Sequence record: MH719082.1
Source of the DNA: Escherichia phage vB_EcoM_IME392
Strand: one strand, 5' to 3'
DNA: 64,000 bases
Part shown: one piece after another, positions 9,367 to 22,077 of the stretch
Layout of the letters: every line of letters begins with the position of its first letter
How positions within the stretch are numbered: the first letter of the stretch is position 1
Notes under the pieces: generated by a model
Database searches by the model: none
What the model was told of the DNA's origin: nothing
What the model saw: the letters and a program-made list of their open reading frames with translations, nothing else
Position numbers and translations under genes: made by a program

Positions 9367-11193
9367 ATGGCTGATGCATTAGATGAGTTTATTGAAGCAT
9401 GTGGCTCTAGACTCGAAGCTATGCATCAGTTAGCATTGATGAGTGGCTACGAGGAGCGGGTTCCAACGATCCAAGAGTTCGTAATGGATCCATACTACCT
9501 GGGTAAGTCCTTGGTAGATGCTGATGGTGTCTGCTCGGTCTATCCTATTTGGATGGATGCTCTGGCTAAGATTTATCCTACTCCGTACACTTCACCAGCC
9601 GTAGAGATTTATCTCACTGGTGGTATCGGTCTTGGTAAGTCTACTGCTGCTAAGATTATCACTCTCTATGACTTGTGCAAATTGCTATGTCTTAGAGATC
9701 CTCGTGCACATTTTAAACTTCTGCCATCCACAGTAATTCGCTGGATGCTGATGAACGCCACTAAAGGTCTGTCCTACGATGTACTCTATGCAGAGATCAT
9801 CGAGTGGATAGAGAATAGCCCATTCTTCAAAGGTAAGATGACTGGTGGTAAGAATCCTCGTACTCTGTTCATTAAGAACGTAGACTTAGGATTCGGTTCT
9901 CGTGGTCAAGATGCTCTGGGTCAGGCTACCGTAGGTGCCATCTTCTCAGAGATAAACGACATGACCGTAGTTCACGGTCAAGCAGAAGATAACTTTGATA
10001 CCATCTATACTCGTATGAACTCTCGTTTCGGGGGTAAAGGGGTAGAGATGATTGGCCACTTGATTCTGGACTCTTCGAATAAGGGAAACCGTTCCTTTAT
10101 CGATGTTCGTCTAGAGGATAAGGCCAAGAAAGGAATTCACGACTATCTGTTATTCAGATACGCTCACTGGGAAGCTAAATGGCACCTCGGCGGGTATTCT
10201 GGGGAAATGTTCTACGTCTATGCTGGTGACCAGTATCGAGATCCGTTTATCTTCGATGAGAATACTCTCAAGATTAAAGACGGTCTGGAGCCATCTCGTA
10301 TTATCTCTGTACCTGTTGAACATAGACAGGAATTCGAGACTAACATTGTTAAGTCTCTTAGGGATCTTGCAGGTGTGTCCACATTCGGTACATGGTCGTT
10401 CATCTCGTCCTACGAGGTGCTTAACCGAGCTGCTGATCACATTAACCCTACTGAATCTAACGTGGTGGTTCTGGACTTCTTCGATAAGGAGCAGACTCTT
10501 CACCAGACTATAGATATTCCTAGACTTGCCTTCCTTAATAAGAAGGATAGGTTCATCCATATTGACTTGGGTCTTAAGAACGACTCAACTGGTATAGCCT
10601 GTTCCTATCTCGATGGTTATGTTGACCAAGAGACTTACGATCCTCTAACCAGTACGCGCATGGTTACTCGTGAACCTAAGATCGTTACTGAGTGGGCGTT
10701 AGAAATTACCTGCCAGCCTGGTCAGGAAGTTCCTATCTACAAGATTAAGAACTTCTTAATAGAAGCATCTCAGCAGGGTTACCCAATTAAAATGGTAACC
10801 ACCGATGGATACCAATCCACTAACTTACGTCAGGATTTAACTCTGGCTGGGTTCGAGACTGCTCTGCTATCTGTTGACCGGACTAAAGATCCATATAACT
10901 ACTTAAGGAACTCGATTCTCGAAGGTCGCAGCACTATTCCAGCTGTACCTAAGTTGATCAAAGAACTTAAGGAGCTAGAGGAAGGCGAAGGTAAATTCGA
11001 CCATCCACCAGATGGCTCTAAGGATATCGCGGATGCCGTATGTGGATCCCAATGGTCTGTTAAGGAGAATATCCATAAGATCGGGTCTACTGCTACGGTT
11101 GAAGATCTTCAAGTTGCACTCCACGAACTTAATAAGTCTAGGGATGCGAAGGAGATGTTTCGGAACATTATTAAGCAACGAGTGGGTGGCTAA
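9367..11193 (+). CDS. terL: terminase large subunit
   Basis: 608 aa; N-terminal P-loop GGIGLGKST; C-terminal RNaseH-like nuclease motifs IHIDLGLKNDSTGIA and DHPPDGSKDIADA; followed by portal. Confidence 0.75.
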   Translation: MADALDEFIEACGSRLEAMHQLALMSGYEERVPTIQEFVMDPYYLGKSLVDADGVCSVYPIWMDALAKIYPTPYTSPAVEIYLTGGIGLGKSTAAKIITLYDLCKLLCLRDPRAHFKLLPSTVIRWMLMNATKGLSYDVLYAEIIEWIENSPFFKGKMTGGKNPRTLFIKNVDLGFGSRGQDALGQATVGAIFSEINDMTVVHGQAEDNFDTIYTRMNSRFGGKGVEMIGHLILDSSNKGNRSFIDVRLEDKAKKGIHDYLLFRYAHWEAKWHLGGYSGEMFYVYAGDQYRDPFIFDENTLKIKDGLEPSRIISVPVEHRQEFETNIVKSLRDLAGVSTFGTWSFISSYEVLNRAADHINPTESNVVVLDFFDKEQTLHQTIDIPRLAFLNKKDRFIHIDLGLKNDSTGIACSYLDGYVDQETYDPLTSTRMVTREPKIVTEWALEITCQPGQEVPIYKIKNFLIEASQQGYPIKMVTTDGYQSTNLRQDLTLAGFETALLSVDRTKDPYNYLRNSILEGRSTIPAVPKLIKELKELEEGEGKFDHPPDGSKDIADAVCGSQWSVKENIHKIGSTATVEDLQVALHELNKSRDAKEMFRNIIKQRVGG

Positions 11194-12771
11194 ATGGCAG
11201 AAAACGAAGTGGTCTCTAAGCAAGACTTAGATGACAAACCTGGTTCTCGCCAGGAGGTCTTAGCAAAGTTGCTAGACGATACCATCACTATGAAGCATAG
11301 TGATGGATTGTTGGGCACGGTACAGGCTTACCTTACCGATCGCCTTACCAATATGGTAACCACTCGTGAAAAGTATTTCAACGAGCTGGCGAGATTTCGC
11401 TATAACTATATCACAGCTGGTATCTATGATATCATCTGCAATGACGTGCTCACCAATACGGATGATGGTGGATTCGTCATAGAGATTGAAGGTGATGAAG
11501 AACTGACTCAGGAGGCGAACGAGCTAATTAAGGCTCTGGCCATCCCGGACTTCCTCACCTCCATTTTGCCGGAGTTACTGCACTATGGATCATACCCCTT
11601 AAGACCGTCACTGGAAGATGGCGAGGGATTGATTGGGTTGGTGGATGATTTTGATCCGCGTGATGTTATCGCAGTAACTGATTCATCCGGCCTTCCTATT
11701 TTCTTCTTCGTGAATTACACGACTAAAGATGCTGGGTACATAGACTATGAGTCTCGTCAGAAGATGGAGTATCTAGGTCCTCAAGAGGTATCTTACCTCT
11801 CTCTGGATCAGAACTTCATTAAGCTGCCGATTCCCGATAAAGTCACTGCCCAGATGAAGCGTAAAATTACGGAAGAGTTGGGTGAAGACGAACCTATGGC
11901 TAAGCTCATGGGTAAGTCGATTAAAATTCGTTCGTCCTTGTCATTCTTATGGGGATCTCTGGATAAGCTCAAGAATATCTTGATGCTGGATAAGGTTAAC
12001 GTCTATAAGACGCTGGCTAACCTCCTGAGTCCGTCTGTAATCGGTGTTCCTCTCCCGAATAATAACGACATTAAGCAGATGAAGTCTATAGTCAACGACT
12101 ATGACCAAATCATTAACAGTACTAACCTGTTTGCTGCTGATATGAGTAACCTCCAGTTTAACCTGCAGGATATTGTATCAGTTAAAGTCGTTCCTATCTC
12201 TGGAGATCGGTCTGTACCTCAGATCCTGGATACTGGTAAGTCGGATAACACTATCGATCCAGAGAAGATCAGATCCGAGTTAGAGGTTCTGTTACAGTCC
12301 TATGGTATTCCTCTGGAATTATTCCTCGGAAGCCTTTCCTCTAAGGATAACCTAAGGACGAATATTCGTTATGCTAAGAAGATCAAGCGCATCGGTAAGA
12401 GCCTGTGTAAATGGCTGCAATATCTGCTGCTGTTACACTTCGGCTTTAAATACGAGAATCTGGATCTCGAGTTATCTGAAATTAAGGTAACACTGAAGTC
12501 CTCTATTAACGTAGATGCTCTTGAGAATATGGAGACTCAAGATCTTCTTATCACAAGTATTAATGGTATGACTGGGATGCTGGATTCTCTGAAGAACGAG
12601 ATCGAGAACTCCAATTATACTATTGATAACGATGCTCTGCTTAAGGTAGTCGCGGATACTCTCGCAGACATAGGCTCTCCGTTCCACGGAGTAATTAAGC
12701 TTAAGTCCGAGGTCCCTATAACCCAGCAGACTCCTCCTGCTCCCCCAGAAGATGGTGAAGAGAATGAATAA
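11194..12771 (+). CDS. portal protein (positional and size-based)
   Basis: 525 aa directly after terL; acidic C-terminus. Confidence 0.55.
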   Translation: MAENEVVSKQDLDDKPGSRQEVLAKLLDDTITMKHSDGLLGTVQAYLTDRLTNMVTTREKYFNELARFRYNYITAGIYDIICNDVLTNTDDGGFVIEIEGDEELTQEANELIKALAIPDFLTSILPELLHYGSYPLRPSLEDGEGLIGLVDDFDPRDVIAVTDSSGLPIFFFVNYTTKDAGYIDYESRQKMEYLGPQEVSYLSLDQNFIKLPIPDKVTAQMKRKITEELGEDEPMAKLMGKSIKIRSSLSFLWGSLDKLKNILMLDKVNVYKTLANLLSPSVIGVPLPNNNDIKQMKSIVNDYDQIINSTNLFAADMSNLQFNLQDIVSVKVVPISGDRSVPQILDTGKSDNTIDPEKIRSELEVLLQSYGIPLELFLGSLSSKDNLRTNIRYAKKIKRIGKSLCKWLQYLLLLHFGFKYENLDLELSEIKVTLKSSINVDALENMETQDLLITSINGMTGMLDSLKNEIENSNYTIDNDALLKVVADTLADIGSPFHGVIKLKSEVPITQQTPPAPPEDGEENE

Positions 12772-13018
12772 ATCTGAGCTGCTTATGCAAGCTGTTGATG
12801 AGTCTGCTGCTACTACGTACACGCTGACTCGCCTTGCAAAAGATAACAGCGATACCGTAAATGGTGTGCTGGATAACTTCCTCCGTGACGTGCAGATCCA
12901 CGATGCTGGCGCTACTGCATCTACCGATGACAATGGCGATCTCACAGTAACTACTCGCCTCGGCGATGGTCTGACTTATATCATGGAAAAGTACGGCTTC
13001 AGCTACACTAAGTCGTAA
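12764..13018 (+). CDS. hypothetical head-module protein
   Basis: ORF, start at internal ATG. Confidence 0.4.
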   Translation: MNKSELLMQAVDESAATTYTLTRLAKDNSDTVNGVLDNFLRDVQIHDAGATASTDDNGDLTVTTRLGDGLTYIMEKYGFSYTKS

Positions 13019-13030
13019 TAAGGAACCGCT

Positions 13031-14467
13031 ATGGAAGTCGTAGACTCAGTCAATGCTGTTGACTTAGTTGAGGTATCCGAGGCAGTCCAATTCGACGTAG
13101 TTGAAAACGCATCCGAAGTTGATGGAAAATACGTCCTAGCGAAAGCTGTAGGTCCTGCGTTCTTTCCTGGTCAAACCTCTGGTAATAAAGTTTATTACCC
13201 CGAGGCGCTCTGGGAAAAAGTGCTGGCCGATGGGGACGTTAATTCCCGGCTGCAAAACCGTACCATGTTTGGTACGATTGGTCACGACATTGAGGATATC
13301 AATGACGAGGTCATCCGTCGAGGCGAACTGTCTCATATCGTAACTAAACTTTTTGTAGATGATGCTGGTGTAGGTCGAGCTGAGTATCTGGTGGTCAATA
13401 CCCCGACTGGTCAGATTCTCAACACGCTACTCCGAGCAGGCTCTAAGCTGCGGGTGTCTACAAAGGCTAAGGGAGCGTTGTCCCATCCAGATGAGAATGG
13501 GGTCAAAACTCTCAGAAGCTACTATCTTAAAAGGATAGACTTCGTACTTACCCCAGGATTCGAGCAGGCACTGCCCGAAGTAGCAGAGTCTCTGAACAAA
13601 ATCCGTAACCAACTACCAGATCCCGTCGAGGAGAGTAAAATGGAACAGAACGAATTCATTGAGCACCTTAAGACTGAGAACGCTCAGCTGAAGGCTCAGG
13701 TTGATGAATCCAAGCAGGCCAATACGGTCCTGAAAACTCAGCTGGATGAAGCGAAGACCCAACTGGCTACCGCTACCGCCCAGCTGGCTGAAGTTAACGA
13801 GTCCCTGGCTAAATACCAGACTCTGGGTACCTTCGAGCAGGTAGACGAAGCACTGACTAAAGGTGCGGAAACTATCACCACTCTGAAAGAGTCTCTGAAC
13901 GAGGCTATCGAAGAGTCTGCTCACGACGTCCACGATCTGGAAGTCGTAGAAGAAGCTCTGGAGAAATACAAAGAGCTGGGTACTCCTGAAGAGATCTCCG
14001 AAGCTATCGCCACCCTGAATGGCTTGATCGAAGAGAAAGAGACCCAGGTCTGCGAATCTCTGGCCAAGAAATTCAAACGCAGCCCGAGCATGATTAAAAC
14101 CATGCAGACTGCGCTGGGTGGCCTGGATAAAGTCGAAGAAGCTCTGGTAGCTGAAGCTGCCGAACTGGGCATCAAAATCGACGAATCCGACGATGGCGAA
14201 GATAAAGGCGACGGTAAAGACGATAAGGGTGATGACAAATCCGACAAGAAAGATGGTGGGGATGACAAAGGCGACGATGCCGATGAATCCAAGAAAACTC
14301 CGTCTAAAGTCGAAGAGTCCCTGAATCGTGTAAATCGCCTGGGATCTCTGATGTCTACCAAACAGATCCGCACCAATCTGATTAATACCCAGAAAGTTGA
14401 CGAGTCTGCTGGTAAAACTGCCGACGCGCCTCAATCTCGTGCCGGTAAACTGATGTCTCGTCGATAA
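13031..14467 (+). CDS. putative prohead protease-scaffolding fusion protein
   Basis: 478 aa; globular N-terminal 200 aa followed by Ala/Glu/Lys/Gln-rich coiled-coil and acidic D/K-rich tract typical of scaffolds; sits between portal and capsid. Confidence 0.5.
   Translation: MEVVDSVNAVDLVEVSEAVQFDVVENASEVDGKYVLAKAVGPAFFPGQTSGNKVYYPEALWEKVLADGDVNSRLQNRTMFGTIGHDIEDINDEVIRRGELSHIVTKLFVDDAGVGRAEYLVVNTPTGQILNTLLRAGSKLRVSTKAKGALSHPDENGVKTLRSYYLKRIDFVLTPGFEQALPEVAESLNKIRNQLPDPVEESKMEQNEFIEHLKTENAQLKAQVDESKQANTVLKTQLDEAKTQLATATAQLAEVNESLAKYQTLGTFEQVDEALTKGAETITTLKESLNEAIEESAHDVHDLEVVEEALEKYKELGTPEEISEAIATLNGLIEEKETQVCESLAKKFKRSPSMIKTMQTALGGLDKVEEALVAEAAELGIKIDESDDGEDKGDGKDDKGDDKSDKKDGGDDKGDDADESKKTPSKVEESLNRVNRLGSLMSTKQIRTNLINTQKVDESAGKTADAPQSRAGKLMSRR
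13640..14467 (+). CDS. nested in-frame scaffolding protein (internal start within 13031-14467)
   Basis: in-frame ATG at 13640 preceded by GAGGAGAG; codon usage switches to highly optimised exactly here. Confidence 0.4.
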   Translation: MEQNEFIEHLKTENAQLKAQVDESKQANTVLKTQLDEAKTQLATATAQLAEVNESLAKYQTLGTFEQVDEALTKGAETITTLKESLNEAIEESAHDVHDLEVVEEALEKYKELGTPEEISEAIATLNGLIEEKETQVCESLAKKFKRSPSMIKTMQTALGGLDKVEEALVAEAAELGIKIDESDDGEDKGDGKDDKGDDKSDKKDGGDDKGDDADESKKTPSKVEESLNRVNRLGSLMSTKQIRTNLINTQKVDESAGKTADAPQSRAGKLMSRR

Positions 14468-14522
14468 CAGACTCAGTATCCGTAAGTGTAATTTGACTTT
14501 CCATGATTAAGGACTAATTTTC

Positions 14523-15950
14523 ATGACTAAGCAGAATATCGTGCTGTCTAACGTCGACGAGGCCTCCGCAGATGTAATGGCTAACGCCTACTTCGACAAA
14601 TACAGCGAGCAAATGGATGCATACGCATCTAACTCCATCCTGGCGCGTGTTAACGAAAGCCTGTCTCCGTTCGAAATGATCGCAGTCGGCCAGACTCTGG
14701 ACCAGTACCAGGGTTACCAGAAGTACGTCAACGAATCCATGAGTGGCCTGGCATCTATGGGTGCTATTCCGGCAATCGCTCTGGACGTTATTACCGCATC
14801 TGTCGGTAACTCAATCCTGCCTCTGATCTGCTCTATCCAGCCGATCCCTGAAGAGCATGGTATTGTTTACTACCGTCAGATCAAAGCATCCCAGACCTCC
14901 GGCGGTTACAACGCAGGCGACGTGATCCGTGATCCGCTGTCTCGTGATAATCCTGGCGAAGGTACCCTGGGTGCCCAGCGTCGTCAGCAGGTAATCGGCA
15001 CCGGTAACGGCACCGAAACTAACTTCGCTGCTACTCTGGAACTGTATCCTGTTCGTCCGAACATGGTCTTCGTCAACATCCCTGGTGTTGGTAATGGTCA
15101 GGACGACGGTAACGGTAAGATCCTGGGCTTCGGCTTCGATGGTACCATCAACTACAAAACTGGCGCGATCACTATCGCAGCTAAAGCAGCTGTTCCTAAC
15201 ACTGCTCAGGTTGCTGTTCGCTTCGACGTTGATGTTGATCTGCTGGATAACCTGGATAAAATCCAGGCTGGTCTGATCTCCAAAGATATCCGTGCGGAAA
15301 TCTGGACCCTGGCTGCTGATATCGGCACCTTCGCTAACTTCGCCTTCCAGAATCGCTTCGGCCGTTCTGCAGAAGACGAAGTCGCATCCGACCTGTCCAA
15401 CGAAATCACTAACGTCCTGAACGTTCGTGCTATCAAACAGATCGCTGCGATGGCTATCGGAGAAACTATCTGGGATCAGACTCCTCCGGCTGGTGTTTCC
15501 TACGCTGAGCACAAACTGACTCTGGTTGATACCTTTGCTCGTGCTGAATCCGTGTTGCACAACAACGCTGGTGTAGGCTCTGTGAACCGTATCATCTGCG
15601 GTCGCTCTGCTGCTGCGGTATTCCGTGGTATGCCTGAGTTCACCCCAGCAGGTCAGTCTGTCGGTACTTCCGTATCTCTGTACGGCTTCTACGACGGCGT
15701 GCCGGTAATTCGTGCAACTGGTGTTATCGAAGATAACGCTGCGTATCTGATCTGCAACCCGGACGGTTACTTCAACTGCCCGCTGGCATACTCTCCGTTC
15801 ATGCCGCTGATCGTTACCGATACCATCCAGAACCCGAACAACCCGTTCCGTGGTACTAAAGCTGCTGGCGTTTGGGCGGGTATGACCCAGCTGAACCCGA
15901 ACCTGGTAACCAAACTGACCTTCAAACTGGCTAACTTCTCTGGTAGCTAA
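14523..15950 (+). CDS. major capsid protein (putative)
   Basis: 475 aa; strongest codon optimisation in window; follows scaffold; strong terminator downstream. Confidence 0.6.
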   Translation: MTKQNIVLSNVDEASADVMANAYFDKYSEQMDAYASNSILARVNESLSPFEMIAVGQTLDQYQGYQKYVNESMSGLASMGAIPAIALDVITASVGNSILPLICSIQPIPEEHGIVYYRQIKASQTSGGYNAGDVIRDPLSRDNPGEGTLGAQRRQQVIGTGNGTETNFAATLELYPVRPNMVFVNIPGVGNGQDDGNGKILGFGFDGTINYKTGAITIAAKAAVPNTAQVAVRFDVDVDLLDNLDKIQAGLISKDIRAEIWTLAADIGTFANFAFQNRFGRSAEDEVASDLSNEITNVLNVRAIKQIAAMAIGETIWDQTPPAGVSYAEHKLTLVDTFARAESVLHNNAGVGSVNRIICGRSAAAVFRGMPEFTPAGQSVGTSVSLYGFYDGVPVIRATGVIEDNAAYLICNPDGYFNCPLAYSPFMPLIVTDTIQNPNNPFRGTKAAGVWAGMTQLNPNLVTKLTFKLANFSGS

Positions 15951-15976
15951 GATTTGATGCGTTAAGTTGGCATTAG

Positions 15977-16010
15977 CTACGGCCTCTTATTGAGGCCGTA
16001 GTTTTTCTTG
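15977..16010 (+). terminator. rho-independent terminator after capsid gene
   Basis: perfect 10-bp stem CTACGGCCTC/GAGGCCGTAG, loop TTATT, then TTTTTCTTGTTTT. Confidence 0.7.
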
Positions 16011-16022
16011 TTTTAATTTACT

Positions 16023-16052
16023 TTGACATATCTCGATTAGTCAAACTAAATT
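16023..16052 (+). promoter_or_regulatory. sigma70-like promoter candidate
   Basis: TTGACA (16023-16028), 18-bp spacer, TAAATT (16047-16052); palindrome ACTAAATTTAGT (16045-16056) overlaps the -10. Confidence 0.4.
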
Positions 16053-16099
16053 TAGTCAGGACGACACACTAGCACTAACCACCAACCAAAGAGGTAGAT

Positions 16100-16816
16100 A
16101 TGTATAAGGTAACTAATAAGTCCGAGTACACTGTTCAAGCTAACCTATCCGCAGACGGTCCGGTAAGCATCGCTCCTAAAGAGAGTCTGACCATTCGTAA
16201 CCCGTCTCGCGATTTCGTTAAAGAGATCGGTCGCGTATCTAACCTGCTTTCCTATACGGAAGTAAGTGGTGATGCGTCTGGTGATCAGACCGATAAAGAC
16301 GAAGTGGTCGTAGCTGAGCCAGAACATCCGAACTCGCTGGACAAAGAGCCAGGTACTGTTATTCAGGGTACTGCTCTGACCAAAGAAGAAATTAACACTG
16401 CTGCTGAGCGCTCTGATCATAAGATCAATGACAAAGTGCCCGACACTGCGGTAGTTGGCGCTAACCAGGATGCTGCTGCACCTAAAACTGGTGGCGAGTC
16501 TAACGTCGCTCCTAAAGAAGTGACTGACGCAGAATTAAATAACGCTGGCGCTGGCGCTGCTGCCGGTGGTGAAGATCAGGGTACTGGTAATGCGGAAGAT
16601 GCTTCTGCAGATAAATCCGACTCTGGCATCCGTCAGTTTACCGGTGAAGAACCTACCAAATCTGAAGATGACGGCGAAGGTGAGCAGTACACTCGCGAAG
16701 AGCTGGAATCTACTCACTGGGCTACCGTTAAGAGCATCGCGGAATCTAACGGTATTGACTACACCAACAAAGGTGAAGCGATCACCGCTATTCTGGATGC
16801 TAAAGTAACCAAGTAA
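16100..16816 (+). CDS. acidic virion-associated protein with C-terminal HeH/Rho-N-like motif (decoration protein candidate)
   Basis: 238 aa; AAGAGG RBS; highly optimised codons; C-terminal WATVKSIAESNGIDYTNKGEAITAIL. Confidence 0.45.
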   Translation: MYKVTNKSEYTVQANLSADGPVSIAPKESLTIRNPSRDFVKEIGRVSNLLSYTEVSGDASGDQTDKDEVVVAEPEHPNSLDKEPGTVIQGTALTKEEINTAAERSDHKINDKVPDTAVVGANQDAAAPKTGGESNVAPKEVTDAELNNAGAGAAAGGEDQGTGNAEDASADKSDSGIRQFTGEEPTKSEDDGEGEQYTREELESTHWATVKSIAESNGIDYTNKGEAITAILDAKVTK

Positions 16817-19742: not shown

Positions 19743-21542
19743 ATGTCTGCACCACGCGTAAGCTATGCGGAGCGCGATCTGAGTGCGTACGTTCCTGCCA
19801 CTGAGACTATTTATGCGGCTATCGTAGTTGATGCTGTTAAAGGTCCGGTAGAGAAACCGATCGTGCCTGGCAATGCTCCCAACTTCCTGAAAATCTTTAC
19901 GCCAAATGAGCAAATCGACATCGGTATGTCTACTGCGCACTTCTCTGCGCTAACCGTGTTGGAGAAATACTCCAGCGTGGTGGTAGTTCGTGCTGCTTCT
20001 GCTGATGCTCGCTATTCAGGCGCTCTGGTAAATAAAGACGGTACCGTCGTTACTGCCAGTGATATTAAAGATCCGTCTGCAGTGGATATGGACGACGAGT
20101 CCTTCCTGATCGCAGCAGCTAACCAGGGTCTTTGGGGTGATGAACTCCGCTTCCAGGTACTCGGCTATAAAGCTACTGAGACTGTCGCCGTAACTGGTGG
20201 TATTCTTAAGTCTACCCAGAAATGGGGTGCTGGTTATCCGGTTAAACTGGCTGGCTCTAACCTGCCTGCTGAAGTAAATGATTACACCACTTACTTCGCA
20301 GTACCTGCTGCTGGTGGTATTAAGCTGGCAACCAGCCGAGCTAATGCTACCGCATCTACTCCTGTTACATTGACCGTGTCCGATGCTACTGGAGTTATCG
20401 TATCTCCAGCTGTGGAGTACACCAAGATCCCTAATACCTTCAATCTGCGGGTATTTAAAGCGGACGATCTGGTTAATCCAGTGCTGGACGTAATCGGTTC
20501 TAAGATCAATGGTCTTAAGGATCAGGACAATAAGTCTCTGTACATCGAAGATGTTACTGCCGACAATATCTACGCTCAGGTGTTTAATAACCCTCTGAAC
20601 ACTGATCCGGTTACTGACATCGTTATCCCAGCAGCATTGGGTGGTGGTTCTAACGGATCTCCTGTTACCGATGGAGACTGTATTCGTGCTCTGAATAAGC
20701 TCAACAACCCTCGTGAATTCGCTATTAAAGTGATCATGAACGGTGGTCGTACTTCTCAGGCATACGGTTCAGCGATCATCGCACTGGCAGAGTCCCGTGC
20801 TGACTGCGTCGGTATTACCTCGGTTCCTCTGACTGCACAGGGTGGTGTATCTCCTGCCCAGTCTATGGTTAACTATCGTAAGCACGACACTAACTGGGAT
20901 ACCAGTTATGCTGCCATGTATGCGCCTCACGTTAAGATCTACGATCGTTACAACGACCGTAATCTGTGGGTATCTCCGGACGGCGTTGCGACGAAGGCTA
21001 TCTTCGATACCGCATCTAACTTCGAGATCTGGTACCCAGTGGGTGGTAACAAGCGTGGCGTGGTTAACGTGCTGGATACGTACGTACACCTGCTAGACTC
21101 TGACCAGGATCTTCTGTATGATGCGGGTATTAACCCTATCGTATTCGAAGAAGGAGAAGGTATCAAGATCTGGGGTCAGAAGACTCTTCAGTATGCCAGC
21201 TCTATGCTGGATCGTCTGAATGTCCGACTCCTGCTGGTTACCATCGGTCCGGCTATCCGTAAACTGCTGGCGAACTTCCTGTTCGAATTCAACGATGCGG
21301 ATACTCGTGCGCTGGCTAAAGGTATGGTCGATACCTATATGGATTCGATCATGGCTCGTCGCGGTGTTACTAAGTATGTCACTATCTGTGATGATACCAA
21401 CAACACTGCAAGCGATGTGGATAACCATATCCTGCGAGTAAGCCTGCTGGTTTGCCCGAATAACTCGACCGAATACATCCCTCTGACTATTGGTATTACC
21501 AATAACAGTGTGGACTTCGATCTGGCCGCGGAAGCACTGTAA
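19743..21542 (+). CDS. tail sheath protein (putative)
   Basis: 599 aa; AAGGAG RBS; position before tube-sized gene; optimised codons. Confidence 0.5.
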   Translation: MSAPRVSYAERDLSAYVPATETIYAAIVVDAVKGPVEKPIVPGNAPNFLKIFTPNEQIDIGMSTAHFSALTVLEKYSSVVVVRAASADARYSGALVNKDGTVVTASDIKDPSAVDMDDESFLIAAANQGLWGDELRFQVLGYKATETVAVTGGILKSTQKWGAGYPVKLAGSNLPAEVNDYTTYFAVPAAGGIKLATSRANATASTPVTLTVSDATGVIVSPAVEYTKIPNTFNLRVFKADDLVNPVLDVIGSKINGLKDQDNKSLYIEDVTADNIYAQVFNNPLNTDPVTDIVIPAALGGGSNGSPVTDGDCIRALNKLNNPREFAIKVIMNGGRTSQAYGSAIIALAESRADCVGITSVPLTAQGGVSPAQSMVNYRKHDTNWDTSYAAMYAPHVKIYDRYNDRNLWVSPDGVATKAIFDTASNFEIWYPVGGNKRGVVNVLDTYVHLLDSDQDLLYDAGINPIVFEEGEGIKIWGQKTLQYASSMLDRLNVRLLLVTIGPAIRKLLANFLFEFNDADTRALAKGMVDTYMDSIMARRGVTKYVTICDDTNNTASDVDNHILRVSLLVCPNNSTEYIPLTIGITNNSVDFDLAAEAL

Positions 21543-21552
21543 GGAGATCAGG

Positions 21553-22077
21553 ATGCCGCCTATTACTTTGGATCAAGTCCGCAATCTGGGAGACTTCGCC
21601 ACGATCGTCGACTGGGAATTACAGTTCATCACTGTACCTTCCGGCCTGAATAATCTGTCGGATGCAGTCTTCCTGCGTTGCGAATCTTCGGATATTCCGA
21701 AAAAGACTGGTACTTCCACATCTATCCAGATTCGTGGTCTGGTGCCAGTTAAACAGCCTGGGATTTACGCTCCTCCTCAGACTCTTACACTAACCTGTAA
21801 CGAAACTGTGGATAACGCAATCGCTCAGCAGATTGCTAACTGGCGTGAAATGTGCTACCAGACTGGTACTGGTGTTGCTGGTCGTACTCAGGATGTTAAG
21901 GCGAAACTGCGTCTTAAACGTCTGAATCGTCAGAAAGTCGGTATCTGGTATTATGATCTCGAAGGTGTATTCCTGGAAGATTATGATGCTGGTGGCCAGC
22001 TGGGCTCTACTTCGGCTGACGTACTGAAACCAGTCCTGACGTTGTCCTACGACGACTTCAAGGAAGGAGCTCTTTAA
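21553..22077 (+). CDS. tail tube protein (putative)
   Basis: start at ATG 21553 after AAGGAGA; 174 aa following sheath. Confidence 0.5.
   Translation: MPPITLDQVRNLGDFATIVDWELQFITVPSGLNNLSDAVFLRCESSDIPKKTGTSTSIQIRGLVPVKQPGIYAPPQTLTLTCNETVDNAIAQQIANWREMCYQTGTGVAGRTQDVKAKLRLKRLNRQKVGIWYYDLEGVFLEDYDAGGQLGSTSADVLKPVLTLSYDDFKEGAL

Follow-up and report, generated by a model that had tools for sequence, protein, structure and literature searches.

The predicted protease-scaffold reading frame and its surroundings

The DNA of Escherichia phage vB_EcoM_IME392 analysed here (a stretch of 64,000 nt from sequence record MH719082.1, referred to below as the window) carries on its plus strand a continuous open reading frame (ORF) at 13031-14467, encoding 478 aa (52.3 kDa). 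The full protein matches PHROG 207 (head maturation protease) with E=1e-15. Sequence evidence makes it very probable that this is a two-product head-assembly gene, specifying a protease-scaffold fusion and, from an internal start, an abundant scaffold. The N-terminal part (13031-13591, aa 1-187) is a predicted S77-type prohead protease domain and is followed by a poorly conserved linker (13592-13639, aa 188-203). Within the linker coding sequence lies a Shine-Dalgarno (SD) element, GAGGAG (13628-13633), which is also read as two Glu codons, and six nt beyond it is an in-frame ATG (13640-13642, Met204). The putative nested scaffold gene (13640-14467) would encode a helical protein of 275 aa (30.0 kDa, isoelectric point 4.6) beginning MEQNEFIEHLK, and it shares the stop codon at 14465-14467 with the full-length frame. 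An ORF of 273 aa on the minus strand (13613-14434) lies opposite this region and is discussed with codon usage below.

Relatives with the fused layout were collected by tblastn and a scan of IMG/VR, giving three isolated phages (Ralstonia RP13, Acinetobacter Ab1-TPeters and Rhizobium RHph_TM61) and 34 metagenomic loci, with proteins of 450-560 aa. A set of 22 diverse, full-length fused homologues (25-37% identity) was aligned with MAFFT. Pfam Peptidase_S77 is matched by 21 of the 22 sequences (best E=4e-13), and a profile of their N-terminal domains matches PDB entry 5JBL (T4 gp21) with E=3.3e-6 over 157 positions. The family profile was needed for this match, as a PDB search with the single sequence returned low-complexity noise only. 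An AlphaFold model built on the same alignment has a confident alpha/beta domain at about aa 20-172, with block-mean predicted local distance difference test (pLDDT) values of 81-94. The best Foldseek matches of the model in the PDB are chains A-C of 5JBL (E=4e-8, template modelling score TM(target) 0.73); besides 5JBL nothing in the PDB fell under E=0.1, and no herpesvirus protease was found at E<=0.001. Taken together, profile and model identify the N-terminal domain as a predicted prohead protease of the T4 gp21 (S77) type. His85 (in GTIGH) and Ser143 (in VS143(T/S)) are invariant in the 22 sequences and are the predicted catalytic residues (codons 13283-13285 and 13457-13459, plus strand). 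In the profile, GTIGH85 and VS143 align with the chain regions of T4 gp21 that contain His85 and Ser140, which we take to be its catalytic residues.

Between the two halves, the model falls below pLDDT 50 at aa 175-182 and 195-204, with a short predicted helix (182-194) in between, and the alignment has no consensus in the linker around Met204. The first long helix starts exactly at residue 204 and more helices follow up to residue 378. An Asp/Lys/Gly-rich segment (14165-14305, aa 379-425) is predicted to be disordered (pLDDT below 50), and two C-terminal helices complete the protein. The alignments show a conserved C-terminal motif, SRAGKLM (14435-14455), which appears as SR..LM or RLM in relatives, the separate scaffolds of Vibrio phages (see below) included; its position and analogy make it a probable capsid-protein-binding tail. 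Position between the protease domain and the capsid gene, helicity, this tail and homology to 'coil containing protein' genes of Vibrio phages all point to a scaffold function for the C-terminal part. Sub-threshold matches of this part to Sec8_N, PspA and the like are coiled-coil look-alikes and were judged to be compositional. The original prediction described the region as repetitive. At the protein level there are indeed recurring units, of a (K)Y..LG(T)PEE(I).EA(L/I)-like form, but the DNA is hardly repetitive, as Tandem Repeats Finder reported just two short, weak 12-nt arrays, one of them at 14195-14223.

Candidate cleavage sites of the form [LIVA]xES are frequent in the protein: there are 11 (1.0 expected; none of 5000 shuffles reached 11), nine of them in the scaffold part. 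Two candidates lie at the junction, VAE↓S at aa 184-187, ending just before the linker, and VEE↓S at aa 199-202, within it. The capsid protein has VNES near its N-terminus, at residues 43-46 and 69-72, and VNE↓S at residues 43-46 is a candidate propeptide cleavage site. The protease of T4, gp21, cleaves after L/I-X-E and fragments the scaffold protein gp22; the T4 prohead contains 72 gp21 and 576 gp22 (PMC9026906). By comparison, [LIVA]-x-E-S looks like the cleavage signature of the present protease lineage, a Ser-extended version of the T4 motif. Coiled-coil heptads could inflate counts of [LIV]xE, but they account less readily for the invariant Ser that follows the Glu. The [LIVA]-x-E-S motif is also recurrent in the RP13, Ab1 and Rhizobium phage homologues.

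The genes upstream are, in order, a 608-aa ORF (9367-11193), a 525-aa ORF (11194-12771) and a small ORF (12752-13018); from their positions, the first probably encodes the large terminase and the second the portal. The small ORF (88 aa) shares its first 20 nt with the 3' end of the portal gene, directly precedes the protease gene and has no match in Pfam or PHROG; EP_H11, RP13 and Ab1-TPeters likewise have a small ORF at this position. Downstream, on the plus strand, is the gene for a gp23-like major capsid protein (14523-15950; Pfam Gp23, E=5.5e-6), the probable client of the scaffold. A terminator-like hairpin (15975-16003, plus strand) lies 3' of the capsid gene. Going 3' from the protease-scaffold gene, no such site comes earlier on the plus strand, which makes co-transcription of the protease-scaffold and capsid genes probable.

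Over the region 13031-14467 the window shares 96% DNA identity with Escherichia phage EP_H11 (111 kb), all of whose genes, the protease-scaffold counterpart included, are labelled 'hypothetical protein'. In a codon comparison with EP_H11 (locus L001, 8001-9437), the protease part differs at 14 synonymous and no non-synonymous codons, and the scaffold part at 33 synonymous and 10 non-synonymous codons. Since the non-synonymous changes are confined to the scaffold part, the scaffold is the faster-evolving half as a protein, despite its stronger codon optimisation. EP_H11 has been assigned to the 'RP13-like' phages with hypermodified thymidine (PMC12686479), and EP_H11, RP13, YerA41 and Carin-5 have been grouped by hypermodified thymidine together with a family-A DNA polymerase fused to uracil-DNA glycosylase (PMC12686479; bioRxiv 10.1101/2025.03.26.645540). 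Elsewhere in the window, two tRNA genes on the minus strand, tRNA-Met(CAT) at 5645-5720 and tRNA-Arg(TCT) at 6190-6265, lie inside an ORF-poor stretch (4680-7062); the latter tRNA reads AGA, a codon rare in E. coli.

The predicted internal start and the codon-usage step

The in-frame ATG at 13640 and its strong SD were noticed in the original prediction, and the computed initiation signals agree with it. The anti-SD duplex energy before 13640 is -8.9 kcal/mol, which is in the top 0.7% among in-frame positions of the ORF and stronger than the value (-6.2 in each case) for the ORF's own first start and for the median of the 73 gene starts in the window. Local mRNA structure is weakest around the same codon: the minimum free energy (MFE) over 60 nt is -4.4 there and averages -12.2 along the ORF, and just 0.9% of positions have so little structure. 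The 73 ORFs of the window contain 316 internal in-frame ATGs, among which ATG 13640 ranks second for SD strength and fourth for low structure, and is the only one to pass both cut-offs (SD <= -7 and MFE >= -7). Its signals are better than those of the median true gene start in the window. EP_H11 has the same SD and ATG, and the start lies within the longest stretch free of substitutions (13556-13672), a comparison with little power at 96% identity. A functional ribosome-binding site at 13640 is thus a prediction well supported by the sequence signals.

Codon usage changes at the same point. The codon adaptation index (CAI), based on Sharp-Li E. coli weights, rises from 0.274 over 13031-13639 (0.27 for the protease domain) to 0.585 over 13640-14464. 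Typical genes of the window have values of about 0.2-0.35, the portal and terminase genes about 0.29-0.31, and the capsid gene 0.705. The N-terminal part therefore has codons of genome-average quality, not unusually poor ones, and it is the C-terminal part that is raised toward the level of the capsid gene. A change-point scan of per-codon log weights, blind to the position of the ATG, placed the best break at 13637 and the next best at 13640, and none of 2000 permutations reached the observed variance reduction. The F value is 42.0 for this ORF, compared with a maximum of 11.9 in the other ORFs of the window long enough for the scan. A reference-free score, in which the phage's own capsid-gene codon usage is set against its own portal-gene usage, gave -0.27 for the N-terminal part and +0.20 for the C-terminal part (p = 3e-7). 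Past 13640, CTG accounts for 24 of 26 Leu codons (7 of 19 ahead of it), the codons TTA, CTA, TCA, AGA, AGG, ATA and CCC do not occur, and proline is encoded by two CCG and two CCT only. The abrupt switch at 13640 and the ordinary codons upstream of it, both claimed in the original prediction, were found when CAI was followed along the ORF as it had proposed; its picture of highly optimised codons holds for the richness in CTG and was overstated for CCG.

A difference in codon optimisation between two parts of one frame is expected if the parts receive unequal ribosome traffic. The highest CAI values in the window presumably mark abundant virion proteins. Besides the capsid gene and the scaffold part, the only genes with raised values are 16100-16816 (0.57), 19743-21542 (0.47) and 21553-22077 (0.42), which, from their positions, may encode a decoration or head protein, the tail sheath and the tail tube, respectively. 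In Ab1-TPeters the gene 3' of the capsid gene is annotated as a 'structural protein with Ig domain'. Two known nested pairs served as controls. In lambda, CAI rises from 0.285 in the C-only part to 0.402 in Nu3 (F=7.7), and in Mu from 0.363 in the I-only part to 0.398 in Z (F=4.3). Both pairs shift in the same direction as the present ORF, which validates the direction of the codon argument, and the step in ORF 13031-14467 is an unusually clear case.

Both the start and the step recur in relatives. Met204 is an invariant column of the alignment (22/22), and one of just two invariant residues in the C-terminal half. For the DNA-level comparison, the internal Met of each relative was taken as the first Met past the end of the protease domain and was picked without viewing the DNA. 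SD-like sequences precede this Met in nearly all of the homologues. By duplex energy, the SD is among the strongest 5% of positions of its ORF for 22 of 30 ORFs and among the strongest 20% for 29 of them; several are a perfect AAGGAGG. Across lineages the SD is encoded by varied residues (EE, KD, EA, SE, KED, KEV). Codon usage was tested with each phage's own capsid gene and own upstream gene as references, and at 21 of 22 testable loci it shifts toward that of the capsid gene past the conserved Met. The step is clearest in RP13 (p=2e-11, change point 5 codons off the Met), Ab1-TPeters (p=2e-6, 3 codons off) and locus L011 (p=7e-7), and the change points of L033 and L027 lie within 6 and 0 codons, respectively.

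In the Vibrio phages 150E35-1, 1.031.O and Va2, a homologous protease (45% identity) and a homologous coiled-coil scaffold are encoded in the same gene order by two genes lying side by side. A stop codon ends the first, and a spacer of 21-38 nt that contains an SD (TAGGAGAA or AAGAGGAA) leads to the ATG of the second. The end of the Vibrio protease ORF aligns with ..PEVAES187, at the more N-terminal of the two junction cleavage candidates and 16 residues ahead of Met204. The two genes show a codon contrast like that of the fused halves (e.g., -0.20 versus +0.10), so the fused ORF behaves, in codon usage, like two separately expressed genes. The Vibrio proteins differ in that the protease domain lies at the end of an ORF of about 475 aa with an extra N-terminal part of about 300 aa. 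In the Vibrio ORFs L004 1553-2983, L005 1595-3013 and L007 1607-3061 the protease is the C-terminal third; the extra part is Lys/Arg-rich and then strongly acidic, and has no counterpart in the window protein. The Vibrio protease is therefore joined to a different partner, on its N-terminal side.

The antisense ORF at 13613-14434 is a shadow of this codon optimisation and not a gene. It is codon-aligned with the sense frame, so that its stops can come only from sense TTA, CTA and TCA codons. Five antisense stops occur in the gene, all at such codons; the last is CTA 13613, with none beyond. The antisense frame remains open because the sense strand is without these codons past 13615. In EP_H11 it is broken by one Val-to-Leu (TTA) change, and it was not present in the five distant relatives checked. 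The original prediction had correctly taken this ORF for a by-product but ascribed it to repeats in the region; the two weak 12-nt arrays were rejected as a cause in favour of codon bias.

Two predicted products and the alternative explanations

SD strength, the structure minimum, the codon step and the conserved Met all agree with the nested start first predicted from the sequence, and suggest that two proteins are made, the short one in excess. Initiation at 13031 would produce the 52-kDa fusion, consisting of the protease (aa 1-~187), a flexible linker and the helical scaffold, while initiation from the SD and ATG at 13628-13642 would produce the 30-kDa scaffold by itself and at a much higher level. 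Free scaffold and the gp23-like capsid protein would then build the procapsid core, and the fusion would co-assemble through its identical scaffold part, so that the core contains protease as a minor component. Once assembly is complete, this protease would cleave after Glu at the [LIVA]-x-E↓S sites. Cuts in the junction region would free the protease, the nine sites in the scaffold would allow it to be fragmented for exit, and the N-terminal propeptide of the capsid protein would probably be cut as well.

Several points weigh against this interpretation. The unequal amounts of the two products are deduced from the codon-adaptation step at the ATG, which is indirect; the reference-free score agrees with the CAI based on the Sharp-Li weights. 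The steps in the lambda and Mu nested pairs are much weaker, with change points about 150 nt off, and being weak and misplaced they leave a sharp step uncalibrated as a general detector of nested genes. Weak local mRNA structure at the start is not universal among the relatives (Ab1 and locus L009 are average), and the homologues are not phylogenetically independent. The window protein itself scores 16.5 bits against Pfam Peptidase_S77 (E=0.006), under the 27-bit cut-off. The label 'scaffold' rests on position, helicity and analogy: the C-terminal part matched no scaffold or other curated family in Pfam and PHROGs, and no sequence match to T4 gp22 came out of these two scans.

One alternative is that only the full-length fusion is made, as with gpO of phage P2, so that scaffold and protease are equimolar, GAGGAG is a by-product of Glu-Glu, and the codon step has a cause other than ribosome traffic, such as folding requirements that differ between a globular domain and a coiled coil. 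The ORF is continuous, Glu-rich sequence easily gives GAG-GAG, the related database records inspected all show a single CDS, and the codon steps are weak in Nu3 of lambda and Z of Mu, both of them validated as nested genes. However, the N-terminal part is of genome-average codon quality and it is the C-terminal part that is optimised; the Met never varies among the homologues, and an SD is retained before it though differing amino acids encode it; the minimum of mRNA structure falls exactly at the internal start; and Vibrio relatives show the same codon contrast between separate genes. Production of the fusion alone is therefore improbable.

A short product could also arise from its own transcript, initiated at a promoter inside the protease-coding part. 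Herpesviruses make UL26.5 in this way, and a late-gene promoter of this phage could be missed; no obvious shared motif was seen upstream of the late genes. Yet 13131-13640 contains no sigma-70-like promoter, the overall count of such sites is no more than in shuffles, and the T4-late motif TATAAATA was not found in window positions 8000-52000, the range searched. We regard a dedicated transcript as very unlikely, and it would alter the source of the mRNA only: translation would begin at this SD and ATG all the same, and the nested gene would be no less real. Alternatively, the step could be a recombination joint, at which a scaffold-plus-capsid block (13640-16816) was acquired from a phage better adapted to E. 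coli. Phage genomes are mosaic, and the high-CAI stretch (scaffold part, capsid gene and ORF 16100-16816) is contiguous. Against this, the homologues are collinear over both halves, GC content is nearly equal (0.484 in the N-terminal half, 0.503 in the C-terminal half), CAI is also raised in the non-adjacent genes 19743-21542 and 21553-22077, and a joint would need to coincide with the invariant Met. Phages infecting Ralstonia, Acinetobacter and uncultured hosts have a step at the same boundary, in each case toward the usage of the phage's own capsid gene; since these hosts have different codon preferences, a single horizontal-transfer joint cannot explain the pattern, and a recombinational origin is extremely unlikely. 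A two-product gene with an SD-led internal start thus accounts best for the observations.

Comparison with known systems

The internal start is unannotated in the records inspected: in those of EP_H11, RP13, Ab1-TPeters and RHph_TM61 the gene is a 'hypothetical protein' or a single 'head maturation protease'. A 30-kDa protein, probably among the most abundant products of infection, would consequently be missing from their proteomes. The position of the codon step within one codon of the start also provides a clean illustration of translational selection exposing ribosome traffic within a single ORF, and a change point of this kind could become an annotation-free detector of nested genes in virulent phages. 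A broader proposal is that the nested arrangement is the conserved state of a wide lineage, the 'RP13-like' phages and many uncultured relatives. We consider this unlikely; if true, it would be the first case of a bacterial protease of the T4 gp21/assemblin fold with an in-frame nested scaffold, mirroring UL26/UL26.5 with a homologous protease, and the fused, nested layout would be old, perhaps ancestral, in the head-maturation module of tailed phages and herpesviruses.

The lambda C/Nu3 pair, to which the original prediction likened the locus, has the same layout, with an in-frame internal start in the protease gene, a common C-terminus and a position between the portal and capsid genes. The likeness does not extend to the enzyme, as C is an S49/ClpP-type peptidase with a fold unrelated to S77 and the protease predicted here is of the T4 gp21 type; the codon step in lambda is also weaker and not sharply placed. 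In Mu I/Z, too, the scaffold starts in frame inside the protease gene, and an SD precedes this start by about 8 nt (NC_000929). The arrangement has been discussed as a conserved feature of Mu and is recognised in Mu-like phages, those of Pseudomonas among them (PMC4378225). Mu differs in being temperate, in having almost no codon contrast, and in that none of the searches found similarity between the proteases.

In the herpesvirus UL26/UL26.5 system, an N-terminal serine protease is fused to a scaffold, and the C-terminal scaffold is also produced on its own, in frame and in abundance. The UL26 protease frees itself and trims the scaffold, which resembles the scheme proposed for the phage, and the T4 gp21 family has been reported to be homologous to herpesvirus assemblin (PMC9026906). 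UL26.5 has its own nested transcript, unlike the phage ORF, where the short product most likely arises by SD-led internal initiation.

T4 shares with the window the gene order (portal, protease, scaffold, gp23-like capsid gene) and the S77 protease family; cleavage after Glu in L/I-X-E, a scaffold cut into many fragments and a need for excess scaffold would also be common to both. In T4 genes 21 and 22 are separate, whereas the phage ORF joins protease and scaffold in a single frame and retains the start of the second. T4 gene 21 has an internal start as well (Met45, gp21s), but that one falls within the protease and is not of the same kind. The literature searched, of which coverage is incomplete, contained no description of a nested scaffold in the S77 protease family. 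ORF 13031-14467 is a clear, previously unannotated example of the layout known from lambda C/Nu3, Mu I/Z and UL26/UL26.5. Its mechanism is not new and it does not overturn current understanding, but it extends the solution of a fusion plus a nested scaffold to the protease family of T4 gp21, in which fused and split relatives can now be compared side by side.

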